A stretch of 64,000 bases of DNA from Dictyostelium discoideum (Eukaryota): positions 512,001 to 576,000 of the forward strand of contig CM000151.3 of NCBI GenBank assembly GCA_000004695.1. Reading direction: 5' to 3'. A model generated the notes under the pieces. That model ran no database searches. It saw nothing but the letters and a program-made list of their open reading frames with translations, and was not told the DNA's origin. Position numbers and translations under genes: made by a program. Positions 14,101-41,238 of the stretch are shown here, one piece after another; positions within the stretch are counted from its first letter, which is position 1; every line of letters starts with the position of its first letter.

Positions 14101-15091
14101 TATTATTCTTTCAAGATCATCATTAAAATGGGAATTAGAGTTATTAATTAATCAAACTAAACTATCAAATAATAATATTAAATTTCATTTCAAGAGTATT
14201 GATGTTGGTGATAGTGAACAAGTTGATAATGCAATCAATGAAATATTAAATGAAAATCAACAAATTACAAATATTGATTCAATATACCATTTTGCATTTC
14301 AACAAATTACATGTAAAGTTCAAGAAATCAATATGAAACATTTAGATATTTCACATGGAGCAAAATCAATGGGAGCAATTAATTTACATAATCAATCAAT
14401 TAAACGTAATTGGAAATTAATTAATTTTGTTATGGCTTCTTCTGCAATTTCATTAATAGGTTCAACAGATTTATGTACATATGCTTGTGCAAATACTCTA
14501 CTAGATTCATTTTCAAAATACAGAGTATCACTTGGATTACCATCTGCATGTATTAACTTTGGATCAATTGAATCTACTGGTTTCGTTTCAAAGAATGAAT
14601 CAGTTTCAGTATTTTTAGACGGTGGTGGTTTCCATCCAACACCAATCAATCAAGTTTTAGGCCTTTTAGATTTACAAATTCAAAATTCTGGTAAATTCAC
14701 AAATTCAATGCTTTCAAATTTCAAACCCTCAAAATTTAAAAATAATCAACAAATATCATTATTTCTAAAATTTGATTACTTGATGAATTTAAAAAACAAT
14801 AGTGAACAAACTAAAAAAGAGAATATTGGAAATAAAAACATTGATGAATTATTCATTGAGAAAGTTTCAGAATTATTTTCAACCGATGAATCAAAAATAA
14901 ATAAAAATCTTAGATTAATCGATTATGGTGCAGATTCATTAATAATAGTTCAATTAAAGAATTGGATAGATAAAGAAATTGGTATTAATTTAATAACAAT
15001 TCAACAACTTCAAAATAATACAATTAATATTTCAATCAAAATGATATTAAATTCATTAATGAAAAATAATCAATGTGGAAGGGAAATTTAA
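8187..15091 (+). CDS. PKS paralog 2, exon 2: rest of KS, AT, DH, cMT, ER, KR, ACP; terminates 8 codons after the ACP region ('...MKNNQCGREI*'), no reductase domain
   Basis: KS His motifs 'EAHGTGTKTGDP' and 'NIGHCEAGSG'; AT 'FVFSGQGSQYPKMA' and 'GHSLGEISA'; DH 'LKGHMVKGKYYFPGCGY' (H-x3-G-x4-P); MT 'ILEFGGGTASLS'; KR 'ITGQSGIIL'; ACP 'IDYGADSLIIVQL'; stop at 15089-15091 with a junction sequence not seen in the other paralogs. Confidence 0.85.
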
Positions 15092-15461
15092 CTTTTTTTT
15101 TTTCAGGGAAAAAAAGCGCTATTTTACCTACACTGCTTTGTGAAATTTAAATAAAAAACCAATATCTAATAATAATAATAATTAATTTATATTTTTAATA
15201 TGAATGTTTTAATATAATTTATTTAAATAATTAAATTCTAAAAATAAAACTTTTGATTTAAAAAATAAAAAATAAAATAAAAAATTCAAAAAACAGCTCT
15301 ACAAATGTCAAAAGAAAAATTTCTAAAGATATTTCACGGTTTTTTACGAGCTCGAAAATATCTTAGGCGCCTACACAAAAAAATTTTATTTTAATAATAT
15401 GACAACATCACAAAATAAATTTACAGAAAAAAAAAAAAATAAAAAAATAAATTAGAGATGC

Positions 15462-15477
15462 CGGAAATGAAAAAAAA

Positions 15478-15516
<39 letters not shown>

Positions 15517-16348
15517 GCAAAAAAAAAAAAAAAAAAAAAAAAATTTGGTTTTTTTTTTTTTTAATTTTTTTTTTTTAATTTTTTTTTTTATTTTTTTTTT
15601 AAATTAATTTATATTTATTTTAGGAGTCAATCCATTCATCTAAATCTATTTTCTCAACTGCTTTTGGAGTAACTGTTATTGAAAAAATTATATTTATTTG
15701 AGACTGTTGAGAATGTTTTTTTGTTTTATTTTTTTATAAAATATTTAATATACCATCTGGATGAATATTTTTTTATAAAATTTAATTAATTAAATTCTCT
15801 CTTTTTTTATTTATAAACAAAACTATAGAACCAACTGACAACATCTTCATACTCCATTGGAATTCTTCGGCACTCAGAGATTAAAATTAAATGATCCCAT
15901 CATTTTACCATTAGAAGATGGATCGTTTAAACTTGTTTTTGGTTATCCACCTTTTGATATTGAAATAATTGAGGTTAAATATTTGGGTGATGGTAGAATT
16001 GGAATAAGATACCATGTCTTATTACCATCAAGAGAAGATCTAGAAACAATAGTTGGTTATGATTATTCATCCAGATGGTATATTAAATATGATTGTCTAC
16101 CACTCAAAACCACAAGCTTTCACTTTCTTCATCACTCTGCCTCTACAAAAGAACAAGAAAAATATCAAAGTTGTAAAATCGATATTGAAAAAGATATAAA
16201 ATATTTTTCAATAACAGTTACTCCAAAAGCAGTTGAGAAAATAGATTTAGATGAATGGATTGACTCCTAAAATAAATATAAATTAATTTAAAAAAAAAAT
16301 AAAAAAAATAAAAAAAATAAAAAAAAACAATTTTTTTTTTTTTTTTGC

Positions 16349-16390
<42 letters not shown>

Positions 16391-16412
16391 CATTTCCAGC
16401 GTCTCTATTAAA
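15462..16412. repeat. Nested inverted-repeat (foldback-like) element, ~950 bp overall, with ~510-bp central region; candidate non-autonomous DNA transposon or hairpin-forming repeat
   Basis: Outer arms 15462..15545 vs reverse complement of 16330..16412 ('tagagatgccggaaatgaaaaa...aaatttggcaaaaa' vs 'tagagacgctggaaatgaaaaa...aaatttggcaaaaa'). Inner arms 15602..15690 vs reverse complement of 16202..16290 appear identical by eye. T-rich and A-rich spacers between arms are also complementary. Confidence 0.5.
15857..16270 (+). CDS. Hypothetical 137-aa ORF inside the inverted-repeat element (no recognisable domain); 3' end lies within the right inner repeat arm
   Basis: ORF 'MEFFGTQRLKLNDPIILPLEDGSFKLVFGYPPFDIEIIEVKYLGDGRIGIRYHVLL...' is not low-complexity, unlike most of the neighbouring intergenic sequence; no similarity to any family I recognise. 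Confidence 0.3.
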   Translation: MEFFGTQRLKLNDPIILPLEDGSFKLVFGYPPFDIEIIEVKYLGDGRIGIRYHVLLPSREDLETIVGYDYSSRWYIKYDCLPLKTTSFHFLHHSASTKEQEKYQSCKIDIEKDIKYFSITVTPKAVEKIDLDEWIDS

Positions 16413-16815: not shown

Positions 16816-18190
16816 CATTTTTTTTTTTTGGTATAAATAAACTATTGTAGTATACAATTAGTATGTTATTTTTATTTATTTATTTTAGGTTTTTTAGTTT
16901 TTGTGAATTTAAAATGGTATGTTATTTTAGATGTGGTAATTAATAATTAATTGGTAGTGTAATTGTTGGAATTGGTTCATTTGTGTTTATGCTCCATTCT
17001 TTTTTAAATTTTTTGATGGTTTCGGACCATTGGGTTTCTTTTTGAGTTTTTGTGAGGTTGTTTTTAATTGAGTATTGGTTAAAGTTTGATAATGTTCTTG
17101 AATATTCCAATCTTATTAGCTTGTGCCATTTTGATTTTAATATATCATAATCTAGTGTTGTGTTGTTTATTTGGTTGTTCCAATTGTCAATTGATTGAGT
17201 TATATTGATGTCAAATAATGATTTGCATAACCATATTTGGTGAATAACTAATGAGATTATGTTCCAATATGCATGTGTTCTGACTAGATCAAGATTTGTT
17301 TATATAATTCCAGTTGAATCTGTATTTTTTATATTGTGCGTTTTCTGCTAAATGAAAATTAATATTGATAGTTGGATCTGGTTTAAATGCTTTGTTGTTT
17401 GTTTGTGGTTTATAAATGAGTGTGTATAATTTTGTTGTTTGGTTTTTTGTTAGTGACCAGTTTTTGTTTCCATTGCAATTTTTATATATAAAATATTTTA
17501 ATTTGTCGTGGTTTATGAAGTTGATTGTGTGCTGACAATTGAAAAACAAATGACCATAGGGATCATTATTCATTTCATTGTTGCAAATGGGGCAAACTTT
17601 GTTGTGTAGATGATTAATTGGAAGACATCTAGCATGGAATCTTTGCATTGTATCACGGCCTTTTGGATCTTTTAATTTTTGAATTTTGACAAATAGTTGG
17701 TCGTATGTGTATTTCCATAATAGTTGTATTGATTGTTGGTGCGAAGTAAGAAGTATATCTGAATATTTCTTGCCAACATAGTCTTTTGATTTACATTGGT
17801 GATTGTTGAGTATTGTCGAGTAGATTTCTTTGAGTGTTGGTGGTAGTGAAATATTATTTGTGGTTAATGTTTGAGAGGTTTGGTTTTTTGTTAATATTGG
17901 TTGTAGGGTTTGAACTTTATCTTTTAGATGTCCAATTTGAGTTGCATAGTTTTCCCATTCTTTTTTGATTTTTATAAGGTATGGAGAAGAGATTGATTTG
18001 TTGATGATTTGATCCATCCAACTTATCATGTATATTGAATTGTTTGCAGATTTATGCTTTTGTAAAAATCTGTTGTATATCCAAATCTTTTGAGCAACTT
18101 GTCGTAATTGTATATTCCACATACCCCAACCACCTTCTTTTAATGGTGTTTCAACAAATTGAAACAAATTGAAACAAGTTTTTTTAATGT
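16816..18190 (-). mobile_element. 5'-truncated non-LTR (TRE/LINE-like) retrotransposon fragment: ORF2 C-terminal region with CCHC finger, 3' UTR and short poly(A)
   Basis: The minus-strand ORF ends with 'CPICNNEMNNDPYGHLFFNC' (C-x2-C-x10-H-x4-C), as at the C-terminus of non-LTR ORF2 proteins. The + strand is locally G+T-rich rather than AT-rich; the minus strand runs into a 12-nt A-tract at 16816..16827. Confidence 0.5.
17289..18167 (-). CDS. Retroelement ORF2 C-terminal fragment (292 aa, truncated at its 5' side)
   Basis: ORF-track protein with a C-terminal CCHC-type finger and no homolog among the cellular genes in the window. Confidence 0.5.
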   Translation of the reverse strand: MFQFVETPLKEGGWGMWNIQLRQVAQKIWIYNRFLQKHKSANNSIYMISWMDQIINKSISSPYLIKIKKEWENYATQIGHLKDKVQTLQPILTKNQTSQTLTTNNISLPPTLKEIYSTILNNHQCKSKDYVGKKYSDILLTSHQQSIQLLWKYTYDQLFVKIQKLKDPKGRDTMQRFHARCLPINHLHNKVCPICNNEMNNDPYGHLFFNCQHTINFINHDKLKYFIYKNCNGNKNWSLTKNQTTKLYTLIYKPQTNNKAFKPDPTININFHLAENAQYKKYRFNWNYINKS

Positions 18191-18980: not shown

Positions 18981-19617
18981 ATGAATAATTTAGAAATTAT
19001 AAATTTAATAGATAAAGGTGTTGCAATTGTTGGGGTGGGGTTTAGAATTCCTTCTGGTAATAATGAAAATTCAATTTGTTCACCAGATGATTTATTTAAT
19101 AATTTAAAGAATGGTTTTGATGGTGTTAGTAGTACATCAGAAAGATGGAGTGACAATTTTCATAAATTAGGTGAAATTAGTAGTCCAAATGCAGGTTTAT
19201 TACCATTTAATGAATGCAAATCATTCGATCCATTATTTTTTGGTATTAATCCATCCGATGCTCATCAGATTGATCCTCAACAAAGATTATTATTAAAATG
19301 TACATGGGAAGCATTAGAAGATGCATCTATCGATCCAATTTCAATTCGTGGTACAAATACTTCAGTTTTCATTGGTTCTTCAAATATTGATTATCAACAT
19401 ATAAATAAACACCAAGACTCAGTTTTAAAAAATGTAATAGCACAATCTGCCTATGCTGTTTCAAATAGAATTTCATACTGTTTCGATTTTAATGGTCCAT
19501 CATTATCAATCGATACTGCATGTTCATCATCATTAAATGCAGTTTCTCAAGGTTATCATTCAATATTAAATGGTACTTCCAATATGTCAATTGTTGGTGG
19601 TGTAAATTTAATATTAG
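18981..19617 (+). CDS. PKS paralog 3, exon 1 (KS N-terminal half)
   Basis: ATG 18981 '[28 protein letters not shown]...[15 protein letters not shown]...VGGVNLILG' followed by a GTAAGA donor at 19618. Confidence 0.85.
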
Positions 19618-19691
19618 GTAAGAATTACATTTAAATATATTATATATAAAATACACTCATTAATTAATTTTTTATTTAAATATTTTACTAG
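19618..19691 (+). other. Intron 1 of PKS paralog 3 (74 bp, phase 1)
   Basis: GTAAGA...TTACTAG; splicing restores '...LILG|DVGMIKAYSYLSMLSKTHGKCKAFD'; the 74-nt length explains the frame shift between the exon 1 ORF (frame 0) and the exon 2 ORF (frame 2). Confidence 0.8.
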
Positions 19692-22600
19692 ATGTTGGAA
19701 TGATAAAAGCATATTCGTATTTAAGCATGTTAAGTAAAACACATGGTAAATGTAAAGCATTTGATGAAAGTGGCGATGGTTTTACACGTGGTGAATGTGC
19801 TACTATTGTAGTTTTAAAAAATTTACAAGATGCAGTTAAAGATGGTAATAGAATTTATTGTGTAATTAATGGCTCAAGTTCAAACGTTGATGGCGGCGGT
19901 CATATGGATAAAGTTAACCTTTATTCACCATCAAAGCAATCACAATTTAATAATATTAATTCAGCATTTAAATCAACCAATGGTAAACTTTCAATTAATG
20001 ATATTCAATATATCGAAGCACATGGTACTGGTACTAAAACAGGCGATCCAATTGAAACTGAAGCAATTTCAATGGCTTTTAAAAATAGAGATAAATCAAC
20101 ACCAATTCTAATTGGTTCAATTAAAAGTAATATTGGTCATTGTGAAGCTGGTTCAGGTGTTGCATCATTAATCAAATGTTGTTTAATGTTTAAATATCAA
20201 TGCTTTTTACCAAATATTCATTTCAAAAATCCAAATCCATTAATTAAATTCAATGAATGGAATTTAAAAGTTGTAACATCACCAATTCCATTCAACAAAA
20301 GAATTAATGAAAAACCAGTTTCAATGATGATTAATAACTTTGGTGTAACAGGTTCAAATTGTTGTTTACTTATTTCAGAATTTAAAAAACAAGATTATGA
20401 ATCATATGAAAACAACAACAACAACAAAAGTAATCATAAAAATATATTAATACCATTCTCAGCAAATTCATCAAATTCATTAAATCAATACCAATCAAAA
20501 TTTAAAAATATAATTAATAATCAATTCAATTTTATTGATTTTACCGCAAATCAAATTTATTCAAAATCAAATTATCTTTATCAAAGATCAGTTGTAATTG
20601 CAAGTAATTCAAATGAACTTTTTGAAAAAATTTTAAATAAAAAACAAATTCAAACTAAAAATTCAATCATTTCGAATATGTCATTCAAAGGAAAGAACCC
20701 AATTACAATTTTTGTTTTTTCAGGTCAAGGATCACAATATCCTAAAATGGCTTTAGAATTATATAATAATGATGAAATTTTTAAGAAGTCAATTGATTTA
20801 ATCGATTCAAAATTATCAAAGTACTATGGTTATTCAGTATGGGGGAAGTTAACAACGATCAAAGATGATGACTTGACCTCAATACATGATCCAATTTTCG
20901 CACAACCAGCACTGTGTATGCTTTCAGTATCACTATTTGAAATATATTGCCATTGGGGAGTAAATCCATCATTTATTCTTGGTCATAGTCTTGGTGAAAT
21001 TTCAGCAGCATATTGTTCTGGAATGATCGATTTAGATACATTCTGTTATACAGTTTATTACAGATCAATCGCCCAATCTAAAACAAATGGTTGTGGTAGA
21101 ATGTTATCAATTAATATCAGTGATGAAGAATTTAAATCAATGTATTCTCAAAAGTATCCACAAATTGAAATTGCGTGTTATAATTCACCTCAATCAATTG
21201 TTGTGGCAGGTAATGAATCAATATTAAATGAAATTTCGAAAGAATTAAAAGAAAAAGAAATTTTCACTGCAATGTTAGGTTCATTATCATCATTCCATAC
21301 AAGTAGTCAGCAATGTACAAAAGATAGTATATTACAACTAAACATTGAAAGTAATCAACCAAAAGTACCAATATTTTCAACAGTTACAACAAATTTATTT
21401 AATGAATCAAATCGATTTAATTCACAATATGTTTATGATAATATTATCAAACCAGTTAAATTCACACAAACAATTTCAAATATTTATAAACATATCGAAT
21501 CAAATCAATTAAATAATGATATTGTATTCATTGAAATTGCACCACATCCAACAATATCATTTTATATTAAGCAAATGGTACCATCAAGTTTAAATGAATC
21601 AGTTTCAGTTTATTCAGCACTTCACAAGAAAAAGAATGATGTCGAAGAGTTTCAACAAACCATTTCAAATTTATATTGTCAAAATGGATATAGTATTAAT
21701 TTTAAATGTCAATTGGAAAATAAAAAATCAAATCAATCAATAAATTTACCACTTTACCAATGGGATGATGAATTATACTTCGCTCAAACTCAAACACTTG
21801 AACAATATACAAAAGAAGGACCACCAATCGATCATCTTGGTCTATCAAACTCTTATTATTCACCATTTAAAAATTCATATAGAACATTTATTGATATAAA
21901 TAATAAACCATTCCAATATCTTAAAGGTCATATGGTTAAAGGTAAATACTACTTCCCAGGTTGTGGTTATATCGATATTATTATTCAACTTTATAAAAAT
22001 CAAGATATTTTTATTAGTTTTATTGAATTTAAAACACCATTAATTTTAATTGAAGGTATCAATCAATATTTACAAACAAACATTCAACAAACTGGTAAAA
22101 GTGAATATCGTGCACAATTTCATTTCAAAGATCAAAAATCAAATGAATGGATTCAATCATCAAATGCAAATTTCCAATTATTAGATCATGGTAATGATAT
22201 ACCATCAAATTATAATATTGAAGAAATTATTAAAAACAAATGTAATTTGAGCAAATTAACAAAGAATGAACTTTATACACAAATAAAATCAAAAACTGGT
22301 TTGAATTATACTGGTGTTTTTCAAGGTGCTACTGAATGTTATTTAGGTAATGATTGTTCATTATCAGTTTTATCTTTAAAATCTCAAACAAATTCATTTT
22401 TAAATATACCAATTTTAGATACATGTTTACATGGAATGTTAGTATTAATAAATGATCAAAGTCAAATTGTATTTGATAAAGCCATTGGATTTAAATATTA
22501 TTCATCAAACATACCATCGGATCTTAAAGAATATAAAGATAGTATTTATGTTTATTCCAATTTAAAACCAAAAAATGCTGATTCATACCATGGATCTATT

Positions 22601-25600
22601 ATAGTAATGTTATCAGATGGTTCAGTTTTATATGAAATTCAAGAAGTTATTTTTAAATCATTAATTCCAATCAAACATTCACTTAAAATTGAGTATCCAA
22701 ATGATGAATTATACAAAGTTCATTTACAATCAAAAGATTCTCAAATTCCAACGCCATCATCATTCAAATCAATTATTTATGAAAATGATTTCTTCCATTC
22801 TGCACTTAATATTCCAGAAGATTTATTCAAATATATTTCAACATTATTTTATAAAGATATTATAAAAAGATGTCCAGAAATTAATATCAATAAAATTAAT
22901 TCTCATAGTGTTAATGAAATTATTTCAAGTTTCAGTAAAATTTCAAAAAATCAAAGATTATTTAGATTTGTATTTGAAACAATAAAAGAGAATGGTATTC
23001 TTAATAGTTTGGAAGAAAATGATGATGCTTATTTCGAATTTAATGAATTAGTTATTAAATCATCAAAAATTATTTCAAAATTATTATTCCCACTAGAAAG
23101 TGATAATGATAATGAAGATTTACCTCAATCATTATTTCAAAATGGTTTAATGGATAAAATTTATAAATGCAGTTATTTAAGAAAGAAGTATCAAATGATT
23201 TCACATGTCATTATACATTCAATTAAAGAGATTATTAATAATAATATTATAATTAGAATTTTAGAATTTGGAGGAGGCACTGCGTCATTATCAGTTGAAG
23301 TTATTGGAGAAATCGTTGCATTACTTCAAGAGAATCCAAATTATCAAGTTGAAATCGAATATACATGGAGTGATATTTCACCTGCATTCATAGCAGATGC
23401 AAAGAATAAAATCAATAAAATCATTAATGATGCTGCTATAACAAATGGATTAAATGTTATTTATCGTTCATTAACAATCGATGAATCATTGCTTGAAAAT
23501 CAAGCAATTAAACCATCATATTATGATTTCGTTATAATGTCAAATGTTCTTCATGTTGTTAAAAATATTAAACAAGCTGTAGAACAAATGTATCAATTGT
23601 TAACACCGAATGGTCAATTGCTATTTATAGAACCACCTTATAAATCAGTTCTAATCGATTCAATCATTGGTTCATTTGAACAATGGTGGTCATTCACTGA
23701 TACTGATATTAGAAAAGATAGATGTGGTATGTCTCAACAAAGTTGGTATCAATTATTAAAGACATGTAATTTTAAAGACATTTTAATGTCAAAAGAATGC
23801 ATCTTTGTTGGGTCAGTAATACATGCACAAAAACCACCAATTTCTTTATTGAATTCTCAACCAAAACATGATAATATAATTATATATGGTGGTGGTGGTA
23901 ATTTAAGTTTTGTAGAAAACATCAAATTAGATTCAAATTCAAAAAGTTTAATTCAAATTGAAACTATTCAAGAATTTAATCAATTATTAAGTCAATCAAC
24001 AATTACAAATGATTCAATAATTTATTTCATAAAAACATTAGAAACATTATCATTGGATAATTATAAACAAATAACTCTTGAATATATTGAAATCAATCAA
24101 AGACTATTACAAATCAATAGTTTATGTAAACATGTATTAATTGTTAGTGATTCAAGAAAAACTAACTATTTAGCATCATCAGTTGTTGGTGCTGCAAGAT
24201 ACTTTGATGAATTCCAACAATTGAAATTACACACATTAGATTTTGATTATGATTCAACTCAAAATTATATAAATTCAAAAAATAACAAAATGGTTCAATT
24301 CATTAATATCTTGGTGGACTCCAAAACAAATGTTCATAAAGAAATGATTATAATTAATAACAAAGTATATTATGAAATAGTTCAAAAAGAGAAAAATCTA
24401 AAACTAAAATACAATTCAGAATCTTTTGAAAATCAAAATAATTTAATGTGTTCATTATCACCAAATTTAGAATATCAATTACAATCAAAACAAATTAAAT
24501 TAAGAGATAATCAAGTTGAAGTTAAAACAATTGCAACTGGTATCAATTATAAAGATTATTTAAATTTTAGCGGTTCAAATAATAATAATGGTGATGACAA
24601 TACAGGTTTACCACAATTTGGATATGAATTTTCAGGTATTATAACAAGAGTTGGTAATAATGTAAAAGATTATAAAGTTGGTGATAATGTATTTGGTTTA
24701 TCAAATTCTTGTACATCATCCCACATTGTTACAAATTTTAAAAATATTCAATTAAAACCTTCAAACATAAGTCATAACGAAGCATCATCAATTCCAATTG
24801 ATTATTTAACATCATTTATGAGTTTATTTAATGTTGGTAGTTTAAATATTGAAGATAATGAATCAATTCTAATTCATTTAGGTAGTGATAGTTTTGGATT
24901 ATCAACATTTGAAATATTAAAATGGAAAGGTTTTAAATCAAATTTATTCGTTACAGTTGATTTGGACGAAACTAAACAATATCTTCTAGATAGATATGGT
25001 GATTTTATTACTGGAATTTATTCAAACACAGATAAAAGTTATGTTACAGAAATAAAAAACGAATTAATTAAATTAGGTTCAAAAAAGAAAGGAGTAGATT
25101 TAATATTAAATACATTACCAAGTGATTTTATGGATTCAAATTTCGAGTTATTAACAAAGAGTGGTAGAATAATTGATTTAACTTCAAATCATTTAAATCA
25201 AAGTGAATTTTTAAAAAATATCAATTTTAAATATAACCATGGTTACCACAACTTTCAGTTATCATTAATTCAAAAAAATAAAATACAAAAATGTTTATAT
25301 GAAATTTCACATGCTATTGAAAATGGAGAATTAAAAACTATTCCAATTAAAGAATTTACAAATTTAAATATTAAAGATGCCATCAAATACATTACCAACG
25401 GTAACATTGAAAAAATTACAGTTAGTCATGATCATGAAATTTATAGTGATATTATTTATAGATCTTTAGATGAAAAAGAGTTTTCAATATTAAAATCAAA
25501 TTATCAAATTAATTCAAATAATTTAGGTAAAAACATATTAATTACAGGTCAATCAGGTATTATTTTAGAAATATTAAAATGGATCATTAAATATTCAAAT

Positions 25601-26599
25601 ATTAACACAATTGAAAATGTTATTATTCTTTCAAGATCATCATTAAAATGGGAATTAGAATTATTAATTAATCAAACTAAACTATCAAATAATAATATTA
25701 AATTTCATTTCAAGAGTGTTGATGTCGGTGATAGTGAACAAGTTGATAATGCAATCAATGAAATATTAAATGAAAATCAACAAATTACAAATATTGATTC
25801 AATATACCATTTTGCATTTCAACAAATTACATGTAAAGTTCAAGAAATCAATATGAAACATTTAGATATTTCACATGGAGCAAAATCAATGGGTGCAGTT
25901 AATTTACATAATCAATCAATTAAACGTAATTGGAAATTAATTAATTTTGTTATGGCTTCTTCTGCACTTTCATTAATAGGTTCAACAGATCAATGTACAT
26001 ATGCCTGTGCAAACCTATTATTAGATTCATTTTCAAAATACAGAGAATCACTTGGATTACCATCTGCTTGTATTAACCTTGGGTCAATTGAATCAACTGG
26101 TTTCGTTTCAAAGAATGAATCAATTTCAGAATTTACAGATGGCATTGGTTACGTTCCAACACCTATCAATCTAGTTTTAGGTCTTTTAGATTTACAAATT
26201 CAAAATGCAGGTAAATTTACGAATTCAATGCTTTCAAATTTAATATCATCAAAATTTAAAAATATTCAACAAACATCATTATTTCTAAAATTTGATTACT
26301 TGATGAATTTAAATGACAACAGTGAACAAACTAAAAAAGAGAATATTGGAAATAAAAACATTGATGAATTATTCATTGAGAAAGTTTCAGAATTATTTTC
26401 AACGGATCAATCAAGAATAAATAAAAATCTTAGATTAATTGATTATGGCGCAGATTCATTAATAATAGTTCAATTAAAGAATTGGATAGATAAAGAAATT
26501 GGTATAAATTTAATAACAATTAAACAACTTCAAAACAATACAATTAATATTTCAATCAAAATGATATTAAATTCATTAATGAAAAATAATCAAATATAG
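19692..26599 (+). CDS. PKS paralog 3, exon 2: KS(C-term)-AT-DH-cMT-ER-KR-ACP; stops 3 codons into the linker that precedes the reductase domain in the full-length paralogs ('...MKNNQI*')
   Basis: Same motif set as paralog 2. A premature TAG sits at the position where the paralog at 29447 continues 'NIDDNNKDLPSNRIDYW...' into the R domain. Confidence 0.85.
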
Positions 26600-26700
26600 A
26601 TGACAATAATAATACATACAATAGATATTAACCCAATGAAAATCAAAACATTACTAGAATTATCAACAGATAATGGGTGATCTTGAAATTTTTTATTTAA
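26600..26700 (+). pseudogene. Remnant of the 3' end of a deleted thioester-reductase (R) domain directly downstream of the PKS paralog 3 stop
   Basis: 'acaatagatattaacccaatgaaaatcaaaacattactagaattatcaacagataatgggtgatcttgaaatt' aligns to the last ~90 nt of the R-domain coding sequence of the paralog at 38160..38250 ('aatagatataaacccaatgaaaatcaaagca...cattactagaatcaatgggctcatacaacactgatcttgaaatcac'). Confidence 0.7.
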
Positions 26701-26970
26701 ATAAGATTCAAATTTTACTTTGCGTTTTTTTTATTTAATATTTTTAGATTTGGGTAGTTTTGGACATTATAAAATAAAAAATCTAAATCTAAATAAAATA
26801 AAAAATACAAATCTAAATTATTCTTTTTTATAAAAAAAAAAAAAAAAAAAAAAGTCAAATCAACATAAAAACATCTTCAGACATTATTTTTAAAATTGAA
26901 TTTATAAAAAAAATTTTATTTATAAAAATAAAATTTTTTCTCAATTAATATAGATATTTCAAAACTAAAT

Positions 26971-28450
26971 TATGAATAATTTTAAAAAATATAAATTTAA
27001 TAGATAAAGGTGTTGCAATTGTTGGGGTGGGGTTCAGAATTCCTTCTGGTAATTATGAAAATTCAATTAGTTCACCAGATTATTAAATTTAATAATTTAA
27101 AGAATGGTTTTGATGGTGTTAGTAGTACATCAGAAAGATGGAGTGACAATTTTCATAAATTAGGTGAAATTAGTAGTCCAAATGCAGGTTTATTACCATT
27201 TAATGAATGCAAATCATTCGATCCATTATTTTTTGGTATTAATCCATCCGATGCTCATCAGATTGATCCTCAACAAAGATTATTATTAAAATGTACATGG
27301 GAAGTATTAGAAGATGCATCTATTGATCCAATTTCAATTCGTGGTACAAATACTTCAGTTTTCATTGGTTCTTCAACTATCGATTATCAACTGTTTCGAT
27401 TTTAATGGTCCATCATTTTCAATGCATGTTCATCATCATTAAATGTTGTTTAATGTTTAAATATCAATGCTTTTTACCAAATATTCATTTCAAAAATCCA
27501 AATCCATTAATTAAATTCAATGAATGGAATTTAAAAGTTGTAACATCACCAATTCCATTCAACAAAAGAAATAATGAATTACCAGTTTCAATGATGATTA
27601 ATAACTTTGGTTTAACAGGTTCAAATTGTTGTTTACTTTTAACAGAATATAAAAAACAAGATTATGAATCATATGAAACTATCTACAAAAATGATAATAG
27701 TAAAAATATATTAATACCATTTTCAGCAAATTCAACAAATTCATTAAATCAATACCAATCAAAATTTAAAAATATAAATAATAATCAATTCAATTTTATT
27801 GATTTTACCGCAAATCAAATTTATTCAAAATCAAATTATCTTTATCAAAGATCGGTTGTAATCGCAAGTAATTCAAATGAACTTTTTGAAAAAATTTTAA
27901 ATAAAAAACAAATTCGAAATAAAAATTCAATCATCTCAAATATGTCATTCAAAGGAAAGAATCCAATTACAATTTTTGTTTTTTCAGGTCAAGGATCACA
28001 ATATCCTAAAATGGCTTTAGAATTATATAATAATGAAGTAATCTTTAAAAAATCAATTGATTTAATCGATTCAAAATTATCAAAGTACTATGGTTATTCA
28101 GTATGGGAGAAGGTAAAAAAAATCAAAGATTATGATACTACTTCCATTCATGATCCAACTATTGTACAACCAGCAGTGTGTATGTTTTCAGTATCATTAT
28201 TTGAATTGTATTGCCATTGGGGAGTAAATCCATCATTTATTCTTGGTCATAGTATTGGTGAAATTTCAACATTATATTGTTCTGGAATAATCGATTTAGA
28301 TACATTTTATCACAGATCAATAGCACAAACTAAAACACACTGTAATGGTGGGCATCCACTGATATTGATATTAGGAAAAATAGATGTAGTATGTCTCAAC
28401 AAAGTTGGTATCAATTATTAAATAACAGTAATTATAAAGACATTGCAATG
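26971..28450 (+). pseudogene. Decayed PKS copy: KS N-terminal fragment and AT-domain fragment joined to a short cMT-region fragment, with internal deletions, frameshifts and an in-frame stop
   Basis: Begins 'atgaataattttaaaaaatataaatttaatagataaagg' like the intact genes. 'gattattaa' introduces a stop at ~27083. The KS C-terminal half is missing (27390-27440 jumps from '[10 protein letters not shown]' to 'IKCCLMFKYQCF'). The AT region is intact until 28335, then fuses to 'actgatattgatattagg...tgtagtatgtctcaacaaagttggtatcaattattaaa', which in intact paralogs lies ~2.7 kb further 3' (cMT region), and sequence similarity ends ~28450. Confidence 0.8.
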
Positions 28451-29098
28451 TGCATGCTAAAATTAAAAAGATTCCTTTATTGTATCCAAAAAATAAAAGT
28501 GAAAAAAAAAAAAAAAAGAATGGTTTAAAAAAAAAAAAAAAAGGGTTAAAAATATAATAAATTAATTTTTAATAAATGTTGAGAGAAAGTATTTAAATTT
28601 TTTTTTTATTTTATTTTTTATTTTTTTTTTTTTTCCTATTCTCTGGGATTATAATCTGAAAAAGGGTTTTTTTTTTTTAAACAAATATGGGCTTACTAAT
28701 AATTTAAATTGGTAAAAAAAAACAGAAAGGATGATATATACAAAAAAAAAAATATTTTTTGTCCTTGAATATAATTTTTTCAAATATTATATCATTGTTG
28801 TTTTATAATTAATTTGAATTTGTATAATTTTATGAATTTTATCTGGTGTGAATCTGCAAAAAATTTTATATTTTTTTTTATTTTTTTATCTGGTGGAAAT
28901 CTACAAAAAAAACAACAATAAATCTATAGATTTAAAAAATTAAAAAATCGTCATTATTTTTTTTTTTGGTATGGCTTTCTCTAAACGAATCCCCACGAAA
29001 AAAAATTATAAACTTCTAATTTTCTAAGGCCACAGTGCTGCACAAAATTACTTTTCACTTTATAGTGCTGAAATTTTTACATCCAACCCCCAAAATTT

Positions 29099-29446: not shown

Positions 29447-30083
29447 ATGGGTAATTTAAAAAATATAAATTTAAAAGAGAAAGGAGTTGCAATTGTTGGT
29501 ATTGGATTTAGAATTCCTTCTGGTAATAATGAAAATTCAATTAGTTCACCAGATGATTTATTTAATAATTTAAAGAATGGTTTTGATGGTGTTAGTAGTA
29601 CATCAGAAAGATGGAGTGACAATTTTCATAAATTAGGTGAAATTAGTAGTCCAAATGCAGGTTTATTACCATTTAAAGAATGGAAATCATTCGACCCATT
29701 ATTTTTTGGTATTAATCCATCTGAAGCTCCATTAATCGATCCTCAACAAAGATTATTATTAAAATGTACATGGGAAGCATTAGAAGATGCATCTATTGAT
29801 CCAATTTCAATTCGTGGTACAAATACTTCAGTTTTCATTGGTTCTTCAACTATTGATTATTTACATACAAATAAACATCAAGACTCAGTTTTAAAGAATG
29901 CAATAGCACAATCAACCAGTGCGATTTCAAATAGAATTTCATACTGTTTCGATTTTAATGGTCCATCACTATCAATTGATACTGCATGTTCATCATCATT
30001 AAATGCAGTTTCTCAAGGTTATCATTCAATATTAAATGGTACTTCCAATATGTCAATTGTTGGTGGTGTAAATTTAATATTAG
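29447..30083 (+). CDS. PKS paralog 4 (full-length copy), exon 1 (KS N-terminal half)
   Basis: ATG 29447 '[28 protein letters not shown]...[15 protein letters not shown]...VGGVNLILG' followed by a GTAAGG donor at 30084. Confidence 0.85.
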
Positions 30084-30830
30084 GTAAGGATTATTATTTT
30101 TTTTTTAAAATTAAAAATACACTTATTAATTAAAATTTATTTTTATTAGATGTTGATATTATAAAAGCATATTCGATTTTAAGCATGTTAAGTAAAACAC
30201 ATGGTAAATGTAAAACATTTGATGAAAGTGGCGATGGTTTTACACGTGGTGAATGTGTCGGTGTTGTAGTTTTAAAGAATTTACAAGATGCAGTAAAAGA
30301 TGGTAATAGAATTTATTGTGTAATTAATGGTTCAAGTTCAAATGTTGATGGTAATGGTAATATGGATAAAGTTAACTTTTATTCACCATCAAAACAATCA
30401 CAATTTAATAATATTAATTCAGCATTTAAGTCAACAAATGACAAACTCTCGATTAATGATATTCAATATATCGAAGCACATGGTACCGGTACTAAAACAG
30501 GCGATCCAATTGAAACTGAAGCAATTTCAATGGCTTTTAAAAATAGAGATAAATCAACACCAATTCTAATTGGTTCAATTAAAAGTAATATTGGTCATTG
30601 TGAAGCTGGTTCAGGTGTTGCATCATTAATCAAATGTTGTTTAATGTTTAAATATCAATGCTTTTTACCAAATATTCATTTCAAAAATCCAAATCCATTA
30701 ATTAAATTCAATGAATGGAATTTAAAAGTTGTAACCTCACCAATTCCATTCAACAAAAGAAATAATGAAAAACCAGTTTCAATGATGATTAATAACTTTG
30801 GTGTAACAGGTTCAAATTGTTGTTTACTTA
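29468..30830 (+). other. Domain: ketosynthase (KS), spans intron 1
   Basis: Cys '[10 protein letters not shown]' in exon 1; His motifs 'EAHGTGTKTGDP' and 'NIGHCEAGSG' in exon 2. Confidence 0.8.
30084..30149 (+). other. Intron 1 of PKS paralog 4 (66 bp, phase 1)
   Basis: GTAAGG...TTATTAG; splicing gives '...LILG|DVDIIKAYSILSMLSKTHGKCKTFD'. Confidence 0.8.
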
Positions 30831-33800
30831 TTTCAGAATTTAAAAATAACAATAACTTTAAAGAGAATATTAATTTAGAATCTCAAAGTGTTAATGATAG
30901 AGTGTTAATACCATTCTCAGCAAATTCATCAAATTCATTAAATCAATACCAATCAAAATTTAAAAATATAATTAATAATCAATTCAATTTTATTGATTTT
31001 ACCGCAAATCAAATTTATTCAAAATCAAATTTTCTTTATCAAAGATCAGTTGTAATTGCAAGTAATTCAAATGAACTTTTTGAAAATATCTCAAATAAAA
31101 AACAAATTCAAACTAAAAATTCAATCATCTCAAATATGTCATTCAAAGGAAAGAACCCAATTACAATTTTTGTTTTTTCAGGTCAAGGATCACAATATCC
31201 TAAAATGGCTTTAGAATTATATAATAATGAAGTAATCTTTAAAAAGTCAATTGATTTAATCGATTCAAAATTATCAAAGTACTATGGTTTTTCAGTATGG
31301 GAGAAGGTAAAAACAATCAAAGATGATGACTTAACCTCAATACATGATCCAATTTTTGCCCAACCAGCACTATGTATGATTTCAGTATCACTATTTGAAT
31401 TATATTACCATTGGGGAGTAAATCCATCATTTATTCTTGGTCATAGTCTTGGTGAAATTTCAGCATCATATTGTTCTGGAATGATTGATTTAGATACATT
31501 CTGTTATACAGTTTATCAAAGATCAATAGCACAATCTAAAACAAATGGTTGTGGTAGAATGTTATCAATTAATATCAGTGATGAAGAATTTAAATCAATG
31601 TATTCTCAAAAGTATCCACAAATTGAAATCGCATGTTATAATTCACCTCAATCAATTGTTGTGGCAGGTAATGAATCAATATTAAATGAAATTTCAAAAG
31701 AATTAAAAGAAAAAGAAATTTTCACCACAATGTTAGGTTCATTATCATCATTCCATACAAGTAGCCAACAATGTACAAAAGATAGTATATTACAACTAAA
31801 CATTGAAAGTAATCAACCAAAAGTACCAATATTTTCAACAGTTACAACAAATTTATTTAATGAATCAAATCGATTTAATTCACAATATGTTTATGATAAT
31901 ATTATCAAACCAGTTAAATTCACACAAACAATTTCAAATATTTATAAACATATCGAATCAAATCAATTAAATAATGAAATTGTATTCATTGAAATTGCAC
32001 CACATCCAACATTATTATTTTATATTAAACAAATGGTACCATCAAGTTTAAATGAATCAGTTTCAGTTTATTCAGCACTTCATAAGAAAAAGAATGATGT
32101 CGAAGAGTTTCAACAAACCATTTCAAATTTATATTGTCAAAATGGATATAATATTAATTTTAAATGTCAATTTAATAATAAAAAATCAAATCAATCAATA
32201 AATTTACCACTTTACCAATGGGATGAAGAATTATATTTCACTCAAGCCCAAACTCTCGAACAACATAGAAAAGAAGGACCACCAATTGACCATCTTGGTA
32301 CATCAAACTCTTATAATTCACCATTTAATAATTCATATAGAACATCAATCGATATAAAGAATAAACCATTTCTATATCTTAAAGGCCATATGGTTAAAGG
32401 TAAATACTACTTCCCAGGTTGTGGTTATATTGATAATATTATTCAACTTTATAAAAATCAAGATATTTTTATTAGTTTTATTGAATTTAAAACACCATTA
32501 ATTTTAATTGAAGGTATCAATCAATATTTACAAACAAACATTCAACAAACTGGTAAAAGTGAATATCGTGCACAATTTCATTTCAAAGATCAAAAATCAA
32601 ATGAATGGATTCAATCATCAAATGCAAATTTCCAATTATTAGATCATGGTAATGATATACCACCAAAGTATAATATTAAAGAAATTATTGAAAACAAATG
32701 TAATTTAAGCAAATTAACAAAGAATGAACTTTATACACATATAAAATCAAAAACTGGTTTAAATTATACTGGAGTTTTTCAAGGTGTTACTGAATGTTAT
32801 ATAGGTGGTGATTGTACATTATCAGTTGTATCTTTAGAATCTCAAACAAACTCATTTTTAAATATACCAATATTAGATACTTGTTTACATGGAATGATAG
32901 GATTGTCAAATGATCAATGTCAAATTGTATTTGATAAAGCTATTGGATTTAAATATTATTCATCAAACATACCAGCAAATTTAAAAGATTATAAAGATAG
33001 TGTTTATGTTTATTCCCATTTAAAATCAAAAAGTGTTGATTCATTCTTTGGATCTATAATAGTAATGTTATCAGATGGTTCAGTTTTATATGAAATTGAA
33101 GAAGTTGTTTGTAAATCATTAATTCCAATCAAAGATTCACTTAAAATTGAGTATCCTAATGATGAATTATACAAAGTTCATTTACAATCAAAAGATTCTC
33201 CAATTCCAACACCATCATCATTCAAATCAATTATTTATGAAAATGATTTCTTCCATTCTGCACTTAATATTCCAGAAGATTTATTCAAATATATTTCAAC
33301 ATTATTTTATAAAGATATTATAAAAAGATGTCCAGAAATTAATATCAATAAAATTAATTCTCATAGTGTTAATGAAATTATTTCAAGTTTCAGTAAAATT
33401 TCAAAACACGAAAGATTATTTAGATTTGTATTTGAAACAATAAAAGAGAATGGTATTCTTAATAGTTTGGAAGAAAATGATGATGCTTATTTCGAATTTA
33501 ATGAAGTAATTATCAAATCGTCAAGAATTATTTCAAAATTATTATTCCCACTAGAAAGTGATAATGATAATGAAGATTTACCTCAATCATTATTTCAAAA
33601 TGGTTTAATGGATAAAATTTATAAATGCAGATATTTAAGAAAGAAGAATCAAATGATTTCACATGTTATTAAACATTCAATTAAAGAGATTATTAATAAT
33701 AATATTATAATTAGAATTTTAGAATTTGGAGGAGGTACTGCATCATTATCAGTTGAAGTTATTGAAGAAATAATTGCATTACTTCAAGAGAATCCAAATT

Positions 33801-36800
33801 ATCAAGTTGAAATCGAATATACATGGAGTGATATTTCACCTGCATTCATAGCAGATGCAAAGAATAAAATCAATAAAATCATTAATGATGCTGCTATAAC
33901 AAATGGATTTAATGTTATTTATCGTCCATTAAAAATTGATGAATCATTGATAGAAACTCAATCAATTAATCCATCATATTATGATTTCGTTATAATGTCA
34001 AATGTTCTTCATGTTGTTAAAAATATTAAACAAGCTGTAGAACAAATGTATCAATTGTTGACTCCAAATGGTCAATTACTATTTTTAGAGCCACCTTATA
34101 AATCAGTTCTAAATGATTCAATAGTTGGTTCATTTGAACAATGGTGGTCATTCACTGATACTGATATTAGAAAAGATAGATGTAGTATGTCTCAACAAAG
34201 TTGGTGTCAATTATTAAAGACATGTAATTTTAAAGACATTGCAATGTCTAAAGAATGCATCTTTGTTGGTATTGTAATACATGCACAAAAACCACCAATT
34301 TCTTTATTGAATTCTCAACCAAAACGTGATAATATAATTATATATGGTGGTGGTAATCCAATTTTTGTAGAAAACATCAAATTATATTCAAATTCAAAAA
34401 GTTTAATTCAAATTGAAACTATTCAAGAATTTAATCAATTATTAAGTCAATCAACAATAACAAACGATTCAATCATTTATTTCATAAAAACATTAGAAAC
34501 ATTATCATTGGATAATTTTAAACAAATAACTCTTGAATATATTGAAATCAATCGAAAATTATTACAAATCAATAGTTTATGTAAACATGTATTAATTGTT
34601 AGTGATTCAAGAAAAACTAACTATTTAGCATCATCAGTTGTTGGTGCAGCAAGATACTTTGATGAATTCCAACAATTGAAACTAAATACTTTAGATTTTG
34701 ATTATGATTCAACTCAAAATTATATAAATTCAAATAATAAAGATATGGTTCAATTCATTAATATCTTGACAGATTCCAAAACAAATGTTCATAAAGAAAT
34801 GATTATAATTAATAATAAAGTATATTATGAAATAGTTCAAAAAGAGAAAAATCTAAAATTAAAATACAATTCAGAATCTTTTGAAAATCAAAATAATTTA
34901 ATGTGTTCATTATCACCAAATTTAGAATATCAATTACAATCAAAACAAATTAAATTAAGAGATAATCAAGTTGAAGTTAAAACAATTGCAACTGGTATCA
35001 ATTATAAAGATTATTTAAATTTTAGTGGTTCAAATAGCAACGGTGATGACAATACAGGTTTACCACAATTTGGATATGAATTTTCAGGTATTATAACAAG
35101 AGTTGGTAATAATGTAAAAGATTATAAAGTTGGTGATAATGTATTTGGTTTATCAAATTCTTGTACATCATCTCACATTGTTACAAATTATAAAAAAATT
35201 CAAATAAAACCTTCAAACCTAAGTCATAACGAAGCATCATCAATTCCAATTGATTATTTAACATCATTTATGAGTTTATTTAATATTGGTAGTTTAAATA
35301 TTGAAGATAATGAATCAATTTTAATTCATTTAGGTAGTGATGGTTTTGGATTATCAACATTTGAAATATTAAAATGGAAAGGTTTTAATTCAAATTTATT
35401 CGTTACAGTAAATTCATATGAAACTAAACGATATCTTCAAGATAATTACGGTGATTTTATTACTGGAATTTATTCAAACACAGATAAAAGTTATGTTACA
35501 GAAATAAATAAAAAATTAATTAAATTAGGTTCAAAAAAGAAAGGAGTAGATTTAATATTAAATACATTACCAAGTGATTTTATGGATTCAAATTTCAAGC
35601 TATTAGCAAAGTATGGTAGAATAATTGATTTAACGTCAAATCATTTAAATCAAAGTGAATTTTTAAAAAATATCAATTTTAAATATAATCATGGTTACCA
35701 TAACTTTGAGTTATCATTAATTCAAAAAAATAAAATTCACAAATGTTTATATGAAATTTCAAATGCTTTTGAAAATGGAGAATTAAAAACCATTCCAATT
35801 AAAGAATTTACAAATTTAAATATTAAAGATGCCATCAAATACATTACCAACAATAAAATTGAAAAAATTACAGTTAGTCATGATCATGAAATTTATAGTG
35901 ATATTATTTATAGATCTTTAGATGAAAAAGAGTTTTCAATATTAAAATCAAATTATCAAATTAATTCAAATAATTTAGGTAAAAACATATTAGTCACAGG
36001 TCAATCAGGTATTATTTTAGAAATATTAAAATGGATCATTAAATATTCAAATATTAATACAATTGAAAATGTTATTATTCTTTCAAGATCATCATTAAAA
36101 TGGGAATTAGAATTATTAATTAACGAAACTAAACTATCAAATAATAATATTAAATTTCATTTCAAGAGTGTTGATATCGGTGATAGTGAACAAGTTGATA
36201 ATGCAATCAATGAAATATTAAATGAAAACCAACAAATTACAAATATTGATTCAATATACCATTTTGCATTTCAACAAATTACATGTAAAGTTCAAGAAAT
36301 CAATATGAAACATTTAGATATTTCACATGGAGCAAAATCAATGGGAGCAATTAATTTACATAATCAATCAATTAAACGTAATTGGAAATTAATTAATTTT
36401 GTTATGGCTTCATCTGCAATTTCATTAATAGGTTCAACTGATTTATGTACATATGTTTGTGCAAATGCATTATTAGATTCATTTTCAAAATACAGAGAAT
36501 CACTTGGATTACCATCAACTTGCATTTGCCTTGGTGCAATTGAATCAACTGGTTTCGTTTCAAAGAATGAATCAGTTTCAGTATTTTTAGACGGTGGTGG
36601 TTTCCATCCAACACCAATCAATCAAGTTTTAGGCCTTTTAGATTTACAAATTCAAAATGCTGGTAAATTCACAAATTCAATGCTTTCAAATTTCAAACCC
36701 TCAAAATTTAAAAATAATCAACAAACATCATTATTTTTAAAATTTGATTACTTGATGAATTTAAAAAACAATAGCGAAGAAACCAAAATAGAGAATACTG

Positions 36801-38308
36801 GAAATAAGAACATTGATGAATTATTCATTGAGAAAGTTTCAGAATTATTTTCAATGGATGAATCAAAGATAAATAAAAATCTTAGATTAATCGATTATGG
36901 TGCAGATTCACTAATAATAGTTCAATTAAAAAATTGGATAGATAAAGAAATTGGTATAAATTTAATAACAATTCAACAACTTCAAAACAATACAATTAGC
37001 ACTTCAATGAAAATGATATTAAATTCATTAATGAAAAATAATCAAAATATAGATGACAATAATAAAGACCTACCTTCAAATAGAATCGATTATTGGAAGA
37101 ATGAAATGAAATTTGAAGAGTCTATTAAACCAATATCAAATGAAATACAATCAAGGAATAATTCAGAAAAAATTATTTTATTAACCGGTACAACTGGTTT
37201 TTTAGGTGGTTTCTTATTATTCAATATGGTAAGATTAGATTCATGTAAATTAATTTATTGTTTAATTAGAAATAAAAGTAAATCAAATAATCCATTAGAT
37301 GAAATTATAAATAATTTAAAATATCATCAACTTTATGAAAAATTAAATCAATCACAAATTTCAAAGATTATACCAATTATTGGTGATTTATCAATGAATA
37401 AACTTGGTCTTTCAAATGATGATTATGAAACAATTTCAAAAAATGTAAATTTAATAATCAATCCAGGTGCAGATATTAATCAAAAATCAAGTTACCAAGA
37501 TTGTAAATTAGTAAATGTAAATGGAGTAAAAGAAATTATTAAATTATCATTATCATCATTAAAACAAAGGATACCAATTGTAAACTTTTCATCATTTTCA
37601 GTATTTTTCAATCAATCACTTGATAAGAATTTTGATGAATCAGTTTTACCATCAATTGATAATATTGATAATTTACCAACAGAATATATGAAGAGTAAAG
37701 TTGTTGGTGAATATATTTTATTGGAAGCTTCTAAAAAATATAATATACCATCAATTTTAATTAGACCACCAAGTATATTTTTAAATCCAGAAACAGGTAT
37801 TGGTCATATTAGTGACTTCTCTTTATTATCAATCCAATCATGTTATGAATTAGGTTATTATCCAAATCAATTTGAAAATGATTTTATTTTAATTAATACA
37901 ATTACATGGTTATCAAATAATATTACAAATATTATAATGAATGATAATTGTTGGACAGATTCAAAAATGAATATTTATAATGTACATGGTAAACAAATTC
38001 AATCAAGTTTAATAATTAAACCACTTGAAAAACATTTCAATTGTAAACATATCAATACTAATGATTGGATTGATATGGTAAATAATTCAAATAAAAAATC
38101 ATGTATTAAATTAAAATCATTCCATTCTTTGGATATAATTTTAAAAAGTGAAAACAATAGATATAAACCCAATGAAAATCAAAGCATATCATTATCAACC
38201 AAATCATTACTAGAATCAATGGGCTCATACAACACTGATCTTGAAATCACTGATAAAATGATTATTTCTCATATTAATCAAATTTTTAATTTAAATGAAA
38301 CAATTTAA
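30150..38308 (+). CDS. PKS paralog 4, exon 2: complete KS(C-term)-AT-DH-cMT-ER-KR-ACP-R megasynthase (about 2920 aa after splicing) with C-terminal NAD(P)-dependent thioester reductase
   Basis: Continuous 2707-aa ORF; all catalytic motifs are listed in the domain entries below; stop TAA at 38306-38308. Confidence 0.9.
31160..32135 (+). other. Domain: acyltransferase (AT)
   Basis: 'FVFSGQGSQYPKMA' and active-site 'GHSLGEISA' (Ser at ~31445-31447). Confidence 0.8.
32280..33130 (+). other. Domain: dehydratase (DH)
   Basis: 'IDHLG...' N-terminal region and 'LKGHMVKGKYYFPGCGY' H-x3-G-x4-P active-site motif. Confidence 0.65.
33600..34300 (+). other. Domain: C-methyltransferase (cMT)
   Basis: SAM motif I 'ILEFGGGTASLSVEV'; downstream 'YDFVIMSNVLHVV' motif II/III-like. 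Confidence 0.65.
34940..35885 (+). other. Domain: enoylreductase (ER, MDR superfamily), nucleotide motif atypical
   Basis: 'QVEVKTIATGINYKDY...GYEFSGIITRVGNNVKDYKVGDNVFGL' and 'ILIHLGSDGFGLSTFEILKW'; the glycine-rich motif reads G-S-D-G-F-G rather than the canonical G-x-G-x-x-G. Confidence 0.55.
35970..36575 (+). other. Domain: ketoreductase (KR)
   Basis: Rossmann 'ILVTGQSGIILEIL'; catalytic 'CTYVCANALLDSF' (Y-x3-N). Confidence 0.65.
36800..37040 (+). other. Domain: acyl carrier protein (ACP)
   Basis: 'LRLIDYGADSLIIVQLKNWI', phosphopantetheine Ser in 'GADSL' at ~36908-36910. Confidence 0.75.
37165..38305 (+). other. Domain: C-terminal thioester reductase (R, SDR-type)
   Basis: 'ILLTGTTGFLGGFLLFNM' (TGxxGxxG NAD(P)-binding) and 'PTEYMKSKVVGEY' (YxxxK catalytic pair). 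Confidence 0.75.
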
Positions 38309-38426
38309 TTAAAAAATAAAATTTTAAAATTTTAATAAATATAAATATAATTTTTAATTTATTTATTTTTTTTTATTATTACTATTATTATTATTATTAT
38401 TATTATTATTTTTTAATTAATTAATT

Positions 38427-39325: not shown

Positions 39326-39398
39326 CTAAAATAAAAATAAAAAAATAAAAAATAAAAAATAAAAAAATTTGAAAATTAAAAATGATTAGGACAGCGAG

Positions 39399-39429
<31 letters not shown>

Positions 39430-39454
39430 GGGAAAAATATATAAATAAACTTAC

Positions 39455-41199: not shown

Positions 41200-41238
<39 letters not shown>

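Follow-up and report, generated by a model that had tools for sequence, protein, structure and literature searches.

Introduction

The lineage-specific expansion of polyketide synthases (PKSs) in dictyostelids is well known (PMC3188802). The presence or absence of a C-terminal thioester reductase (TR) domain among the 40 DdPKSs has already been described, together with the linkage of adjacent near-identical genes (PMC12828403). Pks5, the dictyodene synthase, is active, and makes and releases free carboxylic acids, the dictyodenes (PMC9618038); the knockout of pks7 alters the metabolome, with a loss of metabolite features (PMC12625978). We analysed a 64-kb stretch of chromosome 2 of Dictyostelium discoideum AX4 (23% G+C), here called the window, which provides all coordinates unless another sequence is named. 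PKS genes stand there in the tandem order pks6 (with TR), pks7 (without TR), pks8/35 (without TR), a PKS pseudogene and pks9/36 (with TR). We report that pks8/35, hereafter pks8, is followed past its stop codon by a decayed remnant of TR coding sequence. The literature searched yielded no mention of this relic, no mention of Dictyostelium pks8 in papers, and no pks8 expression or product data.

The remnant had been pointed out in an earlier note on this DNA, whose "paralog 3", "paralog 2" and "full-length paralog" are pks8, pks7 and pks9/36 (hereafter pks9), respectively. Exact-sequence look-ups led us to three further NCBI assemblies labelled D. discoideum. Of these, GCA_054883475.1 is essentially AX4, and the other two, GCA_054859355.1 (W) and GCA_054859385.1 (R), represent lineages distinct from AX4.

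A reductase relic behind the pks8 stop codon

Read directly, the pks8 sequence ends the protein in ...MKNNQI at an in-frame TAG (26597..26599), as the earlier note had quoted it. Under strict local alignment, the DNA just beyond (26618..26667) matches pks9 at 38154..38199 with 84% identity over 50 nt. This is the best non-self match of the segment in the 64-kb window on both strands (E 5e-10), and the second-best is the homologous site of pks6 (4174..4219). When long gaps are allowed, a colinear chain extends from 26618 to 26691, against pks9 38154..38247 (pks6 4174..4267). The proposal that some 100 nt past the stop correspond to the 3' end of the TR coding sequence (38160..38250) is thus sound as to homology, but the solid part is about 74 nt long and falls on 38154..38247, that is, on the pks9 codons lying 62-155 nt upstream of the pks9 stop. 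Beyond it, a weak AT-rich alignment is tentative; there, TTTAAATAAG resembles the pks6-type end, and a 17-nt match links 26686..26702 with 38280..38296.

In so AT-rich a genome, chance, low-complexity matching or an assembly artefact might be held responsible for such a similarity, the more so as alignments with lax gap costs yield long spurious matches; blastn with very cheap gaps gave long meaningless AT-rich alignments, which were set aside. The tests refute this explanation. The relic alignment scores 60, against 24.6 +/- 3.2 for dinucleotide shuffles (maximum 42; none of 1000 reached 60) and 23.7 +/- 4.1 for native 83-nt non-PKS windows of the same stretch (maximum 49; none of 2540). The two top matches in 64 kb are the homologous positions of both TR-bearing paralogs, and the match is colinear and in frame. 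The independent assembly GCA_054883475.1, from the same strain lineage, holds 26540..26800 base for base, so the relic sequence is not an assembly error. The similarity is therefore neither too short nor of too low complexity, a doubt that the earlier note itself had raised, and the probability that there is no relic is close to nil. Significant colinear homology stands at the expected position together with disabling lesions, and the presence of a reductase relic behind the pks8 stop is confirmed.

What remains is small. A tblastn search with the TR protein behind pks8 returned only a 12-aa match (26620..26655, E 2.5), and neither the Rossmann motif TGxxGxxG nor the catalytic YxxxK was found after the pks8 ACP, both lying within the interval that pks8 lacks. 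About 12% of the columns are mismatched in the alignment of 26612..26745, which offers few sites and is weak in its distal part, compared with a pks8-pks9 synonymous divergence (dS) of about 0.12. Inclusion of the relic in the mRNA through splicing of an intron was also considered and was rejected, as there is no GT between the end of the ACP and the relic.

An in-frame deletion junction and a separate frameshift

The earlier note took the present stop of pks8 for a product of the deletion junction, which it is not. One A has been lost from a run shortly before the junction (pks9 CAAAATATAG, pks8 CAAATATAG), and in pks8 this loss brings into frame a TAG that the other genes carry out of frame. 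The run reads CAAAATA in pks9, pks6, the W 8-like gene and the 9-like genes of W and R, CAAATA in pks8, and CAAATTATA in the R 6-like gene; among the genes compared, the frameshift is specific to AX4. Homology to the ACP-TR linker (37050..37065), which had been followed up to the stop, is present there but does not end there, and runs 13-20 nt beyond, the last seven nucleotides (TACATAC, 26613..26619) matching ambiguously either GACCTAC of pks9 or TACCTAC of pks6.

With one A restored, pks8 would read ...NQNIDDNNNTYNRY up to a stop. In full, ...MKNNQNIDDNNNTYNRY, stop, PNENQNI... stands against the pks9 tail ...SENNRYKPNENQSI..., so that NRY-stop-PNENQ faces NRYKPNENQ; the deletion therefore left linker and TR tail in the same reading frame. 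The stop within this motif is a second nonsense lesion, a TAA at 26629..26631 where pks9 has AAA, three codons past the junction.

The net loss between the shared anchors is 1,084 nt, or 361 codons plus the single A, in agreement with the 1.1 kb first estimated. The pks9 interval without a pks8 counterpart covers PF07993, the NAD(P) motif TGTTGFLGG (37184..37210) and YMKSK (37685..37699), and the deleted piece was indeed the reductase. Its breakpoints are identifiable to the extent that the left one lies within 37066..37084 and the right one within 38150..38161, the exact points being blurred. A search for microhomology found the hexamer AATAGA at both candidate breakpoints and once at the junction, with 6 further nucleotides missing from pks8 on the left side. 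The two pks9 copies, one in the linker (37079) and one in the TR tail (38156), are 1,077 nt (359 codons) apart, and its frequency over the window is 0.75 per kb. The junction may thus have formed at an AATAGA direct repeat, through slippage or microhomology-mediated joining; a CTAC/AATAGA junction with a 2-nt (AC) microhomology would be equally possible.

Different breaks in orthologous genes

Over 16 kb of single-copy flank, the W and R lineages show 91.7% identity with AX4, and in the flanking NDH2 gene 97% (dS 0.055-0.07). In two of the comparison sequences (L002 and L003), the flanks aligned to 38427..48595 diverge from AX4 by about 3% in a coding gene and by about 8% across 16 kb. This divergence is far above that expected within a species, and GCA_054859355.1 and GCA_054859385.1 may represent cryptic sister species.

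The W array carries 7-like, 8-like and 9-like genes in the AX4 order. The junction of its 7-like gene (AATAATCAA followed by TGTSGAAGGGA) is that of AX4 pks7, and about 100 nt beyond it can be aligned (15074..15200; L001 7575..7700), so the truncation of pks7 predates the split of the lineages. No TR remnant was found in the sequence downstream of pks7, whose break (after pks9 37045) lies further 5' than that of pks8. The W 8-like gene is also TR-less and ends in ...NQNIDGNNKNLPSNRID, with its four-A run intact. It retains 5-17 nt more linker than AX4 pks8, depending on the position of the AX4 break, and past ...AATAGAATTGA it runs into unrelated DNA, in which no TR remnant was found. The only homology between the DNA downstream of pks8 in AX4 and in W is a 175-nt stretch near the pks9 promoter.

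Sliding-window neighbour-joining trees with bootstrap, covering pks6-9 and the W and R copies, are mosaic. In the middle of the genes (alignment columns ~4500..6750, roughly ER-KR), sequences cluster by lineage and not by gene, the AX4 paralogs together and the W and R copies together, which is the pattern left by gene conversion. At the gene ends, pks9 groups with the 9-like genes, and AX4 pks8 and W 8-like form a group at 92-100% bootstrap over the initial 1.5 kb and the final 0.6-1.5 kb (99% in the last 600 nt). The two are therefore orthologs next to the junction, yet their breaks differ: AX4 keeps a right-hand relic that is absent in W, and W keeps left-hand linker that is absent in AX4. 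As each keeps sequence that the other has lost, neither junction can be derived from the other. The W ortholog would accordingly have lost its TR by yet another break, and the deletion in AX4 took place after the lineages had split, whereas the pks7 truncation is older.

This bears on whether pks7 and pks8 inherited a single TR loss that was duplicated and whose junctions were later remodelled. The two genes are adjacent, and their end points in the linker are less than 40 nt apart; as the pks7 break is the more 5' of the two, it could in principle have been superimposed on a pks8-type deletion, and a pks7 + pks8 group appears, with a weak 28%, in the last 600 nt. Most tree windows do not group them, however. 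Moreover, the lineages have the pks7 junction in common, which places it before their split, while the AX4 pks8 junction is absent from the W ortholog; being younger than the pks7 truncation, it cannot have been its precursor. We consider a single loss very unlikely. The earlier claim that pks8 lost its TR independently of pks7 is supported, and by a stronger argument than differing junctions alone.

In the R array, a TR-bearing 6-like gene is followed by no more of pks7 than a 1.3-kb MT fragment and then by pks9, pks8 being absent (L002 1..10000); the copy number of the array thus varies between close lineages. A palindrome resembling a terminal inverted repeat (CCAAAATTACCGTATTAATTTCG...CGAAATTAATATGGTAATTTTGG) stands about 115 nt past the truncated end of W 8-like (L001 17770..17850), and the same palindrome abuts the pks7 MT fragment in R (L002 7700..7850), in both cases at deletion boundaries. 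This suggests transposon-associated deletions in the W and R lineages.

Selection on genes with and without the reductase

Ratios of non-synonymous to synonymous divergence (dN/dS) were computed on a set that excludes pks5 and the partial 6-like gene of L002. From KS to ACP, dN/dS is 0.27 for pks8 against 8-like (2507 codons), 0.225 for pks7 against 7-like and 0.21-0.24 for pks9 against 9-like; the retained TR domains of pks9 and pks6 give 0.19-0.28. There is thus purifying selection in the TR-less genes as well as in the retained TRs, so the former are not in decay, and reductive release cannot in general be dispensed with. The earlier note had read two losses in one array as a sign of either relaxed selection on reductive release or selection for product diversification. 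These values argue against a general relaxation; diversification is compatible with them, but not proven.

The last 200 codons have a history of their own. Between pks8 and pks9 their dN is 0.075, twice the 0.037 between pks7 and pks9, a sign of a burst of amino-acid replacement on the stem common to pks8 and 8-like. This hints that the TR of the pks8 lineage may already have been non-functional before both physical truncations. One could then propose that the TR died, through a point mutation or frameshift, in the common ancestor of AX4 and its sister lineage, and that the differing truncations are later neutral clean-ups. Such a sequence of events would fit two TR-less pks8 orthologs with different junctions, the stem burst being followed by purifying selection (dN/dS 0.14 for pks8 against 8-like in these codons). 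It would also fit a relic that carries several indels and has diverged at least as much as pks8-pks9 synonymous sites, in an array where deletions are rife (the pseudogene at 26791..28451; the loss of pks7 and pks8 in GCA_054859385.1). However, the linker that was kept shows no disabling lesion in common, the frameshift in the A-run is confined to AX4, and the in-frame junction fits, if weakly, a deletion in a gene that was still translated. Inactivation first is the chief rival to our reading, and we hold it to be somewhat less probable than not.

Genes and other features of the window

The four large genes on the + strand are type I PKSs, all with KS-AT-DH-MT-ER-KR-ACP by Pfam, and pks6 and pks9 also have a C-terminal PF07993 domain (E ~1e-52) (Table 1). 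Spliced translations of pks7, pks8/35 and pks9/36, with one short intron removed from each, match AX4 database entries exactly. In the pks8 body, Pfam recognises PF00109/PF02801, PF00698, PF21089 (weakly), PF08242, PF08240/PF13602, PF08659 and PF23297/PF00550. The match to the ACP profile extends to position 88 of 95, and the codon of the phosphopantetheine serine (GADSL motif) is at 26456..26458. With this domain order in one open reading frame (ORF), the ACP serine and the constraint described above, the body is that of a highly reducing iterative type I PKS. When the last 300 aa of pks8 served as a database query, only four short, distant fragments from other Dictyostelium assemblies came back. 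To the left, the window is adjoined by pks5, which is TR-less with an end point different from that of pks8, and behind which no TR relic is visible. The genes beyond pks9 are unrelated to PKSs (NDH2, calcipressin-like, ComC-like, DOT1, a kinase and dynamin).

Table 1. Coordinates of the array features in the window, with the comparators used.
Feature	Position	Strand	Description
pks6, 3' part; second full-length comparator	24..4313	+	full protein 2924 aa; TR domain present
pks7, TR-less	7478..15091	+	2513 aa; junction after 15073, between AATAATCAA and TGTGGAAGGGAAATTTAA
pks8/35 (DDB_G0271618 / DDB_G0295667)	18981..26599	+	2514 aa; KS-AT-DH-MT-ER-KR-ACP, no TR; "Probable polyketide synthase 8/35"
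pks8 exon structure	exon 1 18981..19617; intron 19618..19691; exon 2 19692..26599	+	spliced translation without internal stop
pks8 ACP, now the last domain	26336..26593	+	PF23297, aa 2213-2298 of the exon-2 ORF, E 3.6e-29
Frameshift and present stop of pks8	26592..26599	+	A-run AAA, against AAAA in pks9 (37044..37047); TAG in frame
ACP-TR linker kept past the stop	26600..26619	+	26600..26612 = pks9 37053..37065, 13/13
TR-tail relic	26618..26691	+	colinear with pks9 38154..38247; about four indels and a nonsense change
AATAGA hexamer at the junction, candidate microhomology	26620..26625	+	in pks9 37040..38310 only at 37079 and 38156
Possible relic continuation, tentative	26692..26745	+	weak AT-rich alignment across the ancestral stop and 3' untranslated region
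Decayed fifth PKS copy	26791..28451	+	directly downstream of the relic; from self-comparison and Pfam on ORF 27405..28421
pks9/36, full-length comparator	29447..38308	+	2931 aa; linker 37046..37100; TR (PF07993) 37181..37897; relic-matching tail 38154..38247
pks9 interval without pks8 counterpart	37074..38155	+

Three parts survive in the pseudogene: the promoter-proximal region with part of exon 1 (26791..27391), a KS-linker/AT segment (27427..28337) and an MT segment (28344..28451). Its divergence from the live paralogs is about 9-13%. It has several internal deletions, and is annotated in GCA_054883475.1 as two hypothetical proteins of 116 and 331 aa. The presence of this decayed copy beside the relic indicates that deletional decay is common in the array.

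Several smaller observations concern the linker and the gene ends. The pks6 linker (3070..3085, against 37046..37070) lacks 18 nt (six codons, ...IDDNNK...) that are kept in pks9, pks8 and the other lineages, and the AT-rich ACP-TR linker is prone to indels. AX4 pks9 ends in HINQIFNLNETI before its stop (38270..38308), whereas HIKHIFK is the ending of pks6 (4290..4313) and, in the other lineages, of the 9-like and 6-like genes. The genes with the latter ending (pks6, and the 9-like and 6-like genes at L002 ~5930 and L003 ~18865) have near-identical 3' untranslated regions. The ORF of AX4 pks9 appears to have been lengthened by a small insertion, and the 3' ends of 9-like and 6-like genes in the other lineages look homogenised. 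Downstream of pks7 lies an inverted repeat of about 220-250 nt and 85% identity (15453..15699 and 16190..16407), which may represent the ends of a transposable element. The ORF at 17289..18167 on the - strand has no Pfam match.

Discussion

The TR-less state of pks8 is derived, as the earlier note had claimed: the remnant is colinear, in frame and decayed. We propose that the ancestor of pks8/35 was a full-length highly reducing PKS ending in ACP, linker and TR, like pks6 and pks9. An internal deletion of about 1.08 kb took the whole catalytic part of the TR, starting in the linker and stopping about 50 codons short of the original stop, while the original 3' end of the gene, and presumably its poly(A) signals, would have been kept. 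The remnant has since decayed, through several indels and the nonsense change that lies three codons beyond the junction, and the loss of one A in the AX4 lineage now ends translation at ...MKNNQI, 20 nt before the junction. We regard this whole account, from a TR-terminated ancestor to a constrained TR-less synthase body with a decayed tail, as highly probable.

Some points weigh against it. Between AATAATAA and AATAGA there are 7 nt in pks8 and 13 in pks9, which calls either for a second 6-nt deletion or for a CTAC/AATAGA break with its 2-nt microhomology. An in-frame junction is expected by chance in one case out of three, and a point mutation could have disabled the TR before the deletion. 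Gene conversion among the paralogs means that orthology and timing rest on the 5' and 3' ends of the genes, and the pks ortholog pairs have a dS of about 0.12, compared with 0.055-0.07 in the flanking NDH2.

We infer that pks8 is a working TR-less synthase. Its product would have to leave the ACP unreduced, most likely as a free acid, a prediction made because Pks5, of the same architecture, makes acids and because the pks7 knockout loses metabolites. Product prediction for the array is aided more generally, with acids expected from pks5, pks7 and pks8, and aldehydes or alcohols from pks6 and pks9. The relic gives direct proof, in the DNA itself, of the polarity of the change, the ACP-terminated form of pks8 being derived from a TR-terminated one. 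It also shows that neighbouring paralogs lost the TR on more than one occasion, as an ortholog probably did again, and it bears on why social amoebae hold so many near-identical PKS genes.

There are at least four separate TR cut-offs within about 45 nt of linker (pks5, pks7, AX4 pks8 and the sister-lineage pks8 ortholog), and the 7.5-kb synthase body may be under purifying selection in each of these four cases. One might speculate that the ACP-TR linker is a recurrent truncation point favoured by selection. We consider this unlikely on present evidence, but if it were true, repeated loss of the release domain, from reductive to hydrolytic release of an acid, would be a routine means of diversifying polyketide products.

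Comparison with known systems

The closest relatives of pks8 are pks9/36 and pks6, which share its KS-AT-DH-MT-ER-KR-ACP body, at 94.5% nucleotide identity, and the linker up to the break. They differ in having kept a C-terminal TR of 420 aa, of which pks8 retains a decayed tail matching their last ~50 codons. Pks5, the most distant member (88% identity), and Pks7 resemble pks8 in being TR-less and ACP-terminated, but their truncation points differ from its own, and the DNA behind them shows no TR remnant. The domain that pks8 lost is of the class of terminal TR release domains (PF07993, SDR fold; E 5.6e-52, 177-179 bits against a curated cut-off of 20.1 in pks9 and pks6), with solved relatives in MxaA of the myxalamid synthase (4u7w; 5e-25), a PKS TR (8v1x), the R domain of a mycobacterial non-ribosomal peptide system (4dqv) and carboxylic acid reductases. 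Compared with these, nothing catalytic is left in pks8, the relic being the extreme C-terminal segment only.

A further parallel is offered by fungal LovB, which ends in a truncated non-ribosomal peptide synthetase module, a lone condensation domain; this vestigial release module is translated and functional. As in pks8, a terminal off-loading module has been partly lost and its remnant records the ancestry of the enzyme, but the remnant of pks8 is untranslated, broken DNA past a stop codon. That tandem families lose domains by deletion is well known, and no concept is changed by the present case. The pks8 relic is a clean new example of this familiar process rather than a new kind of element.

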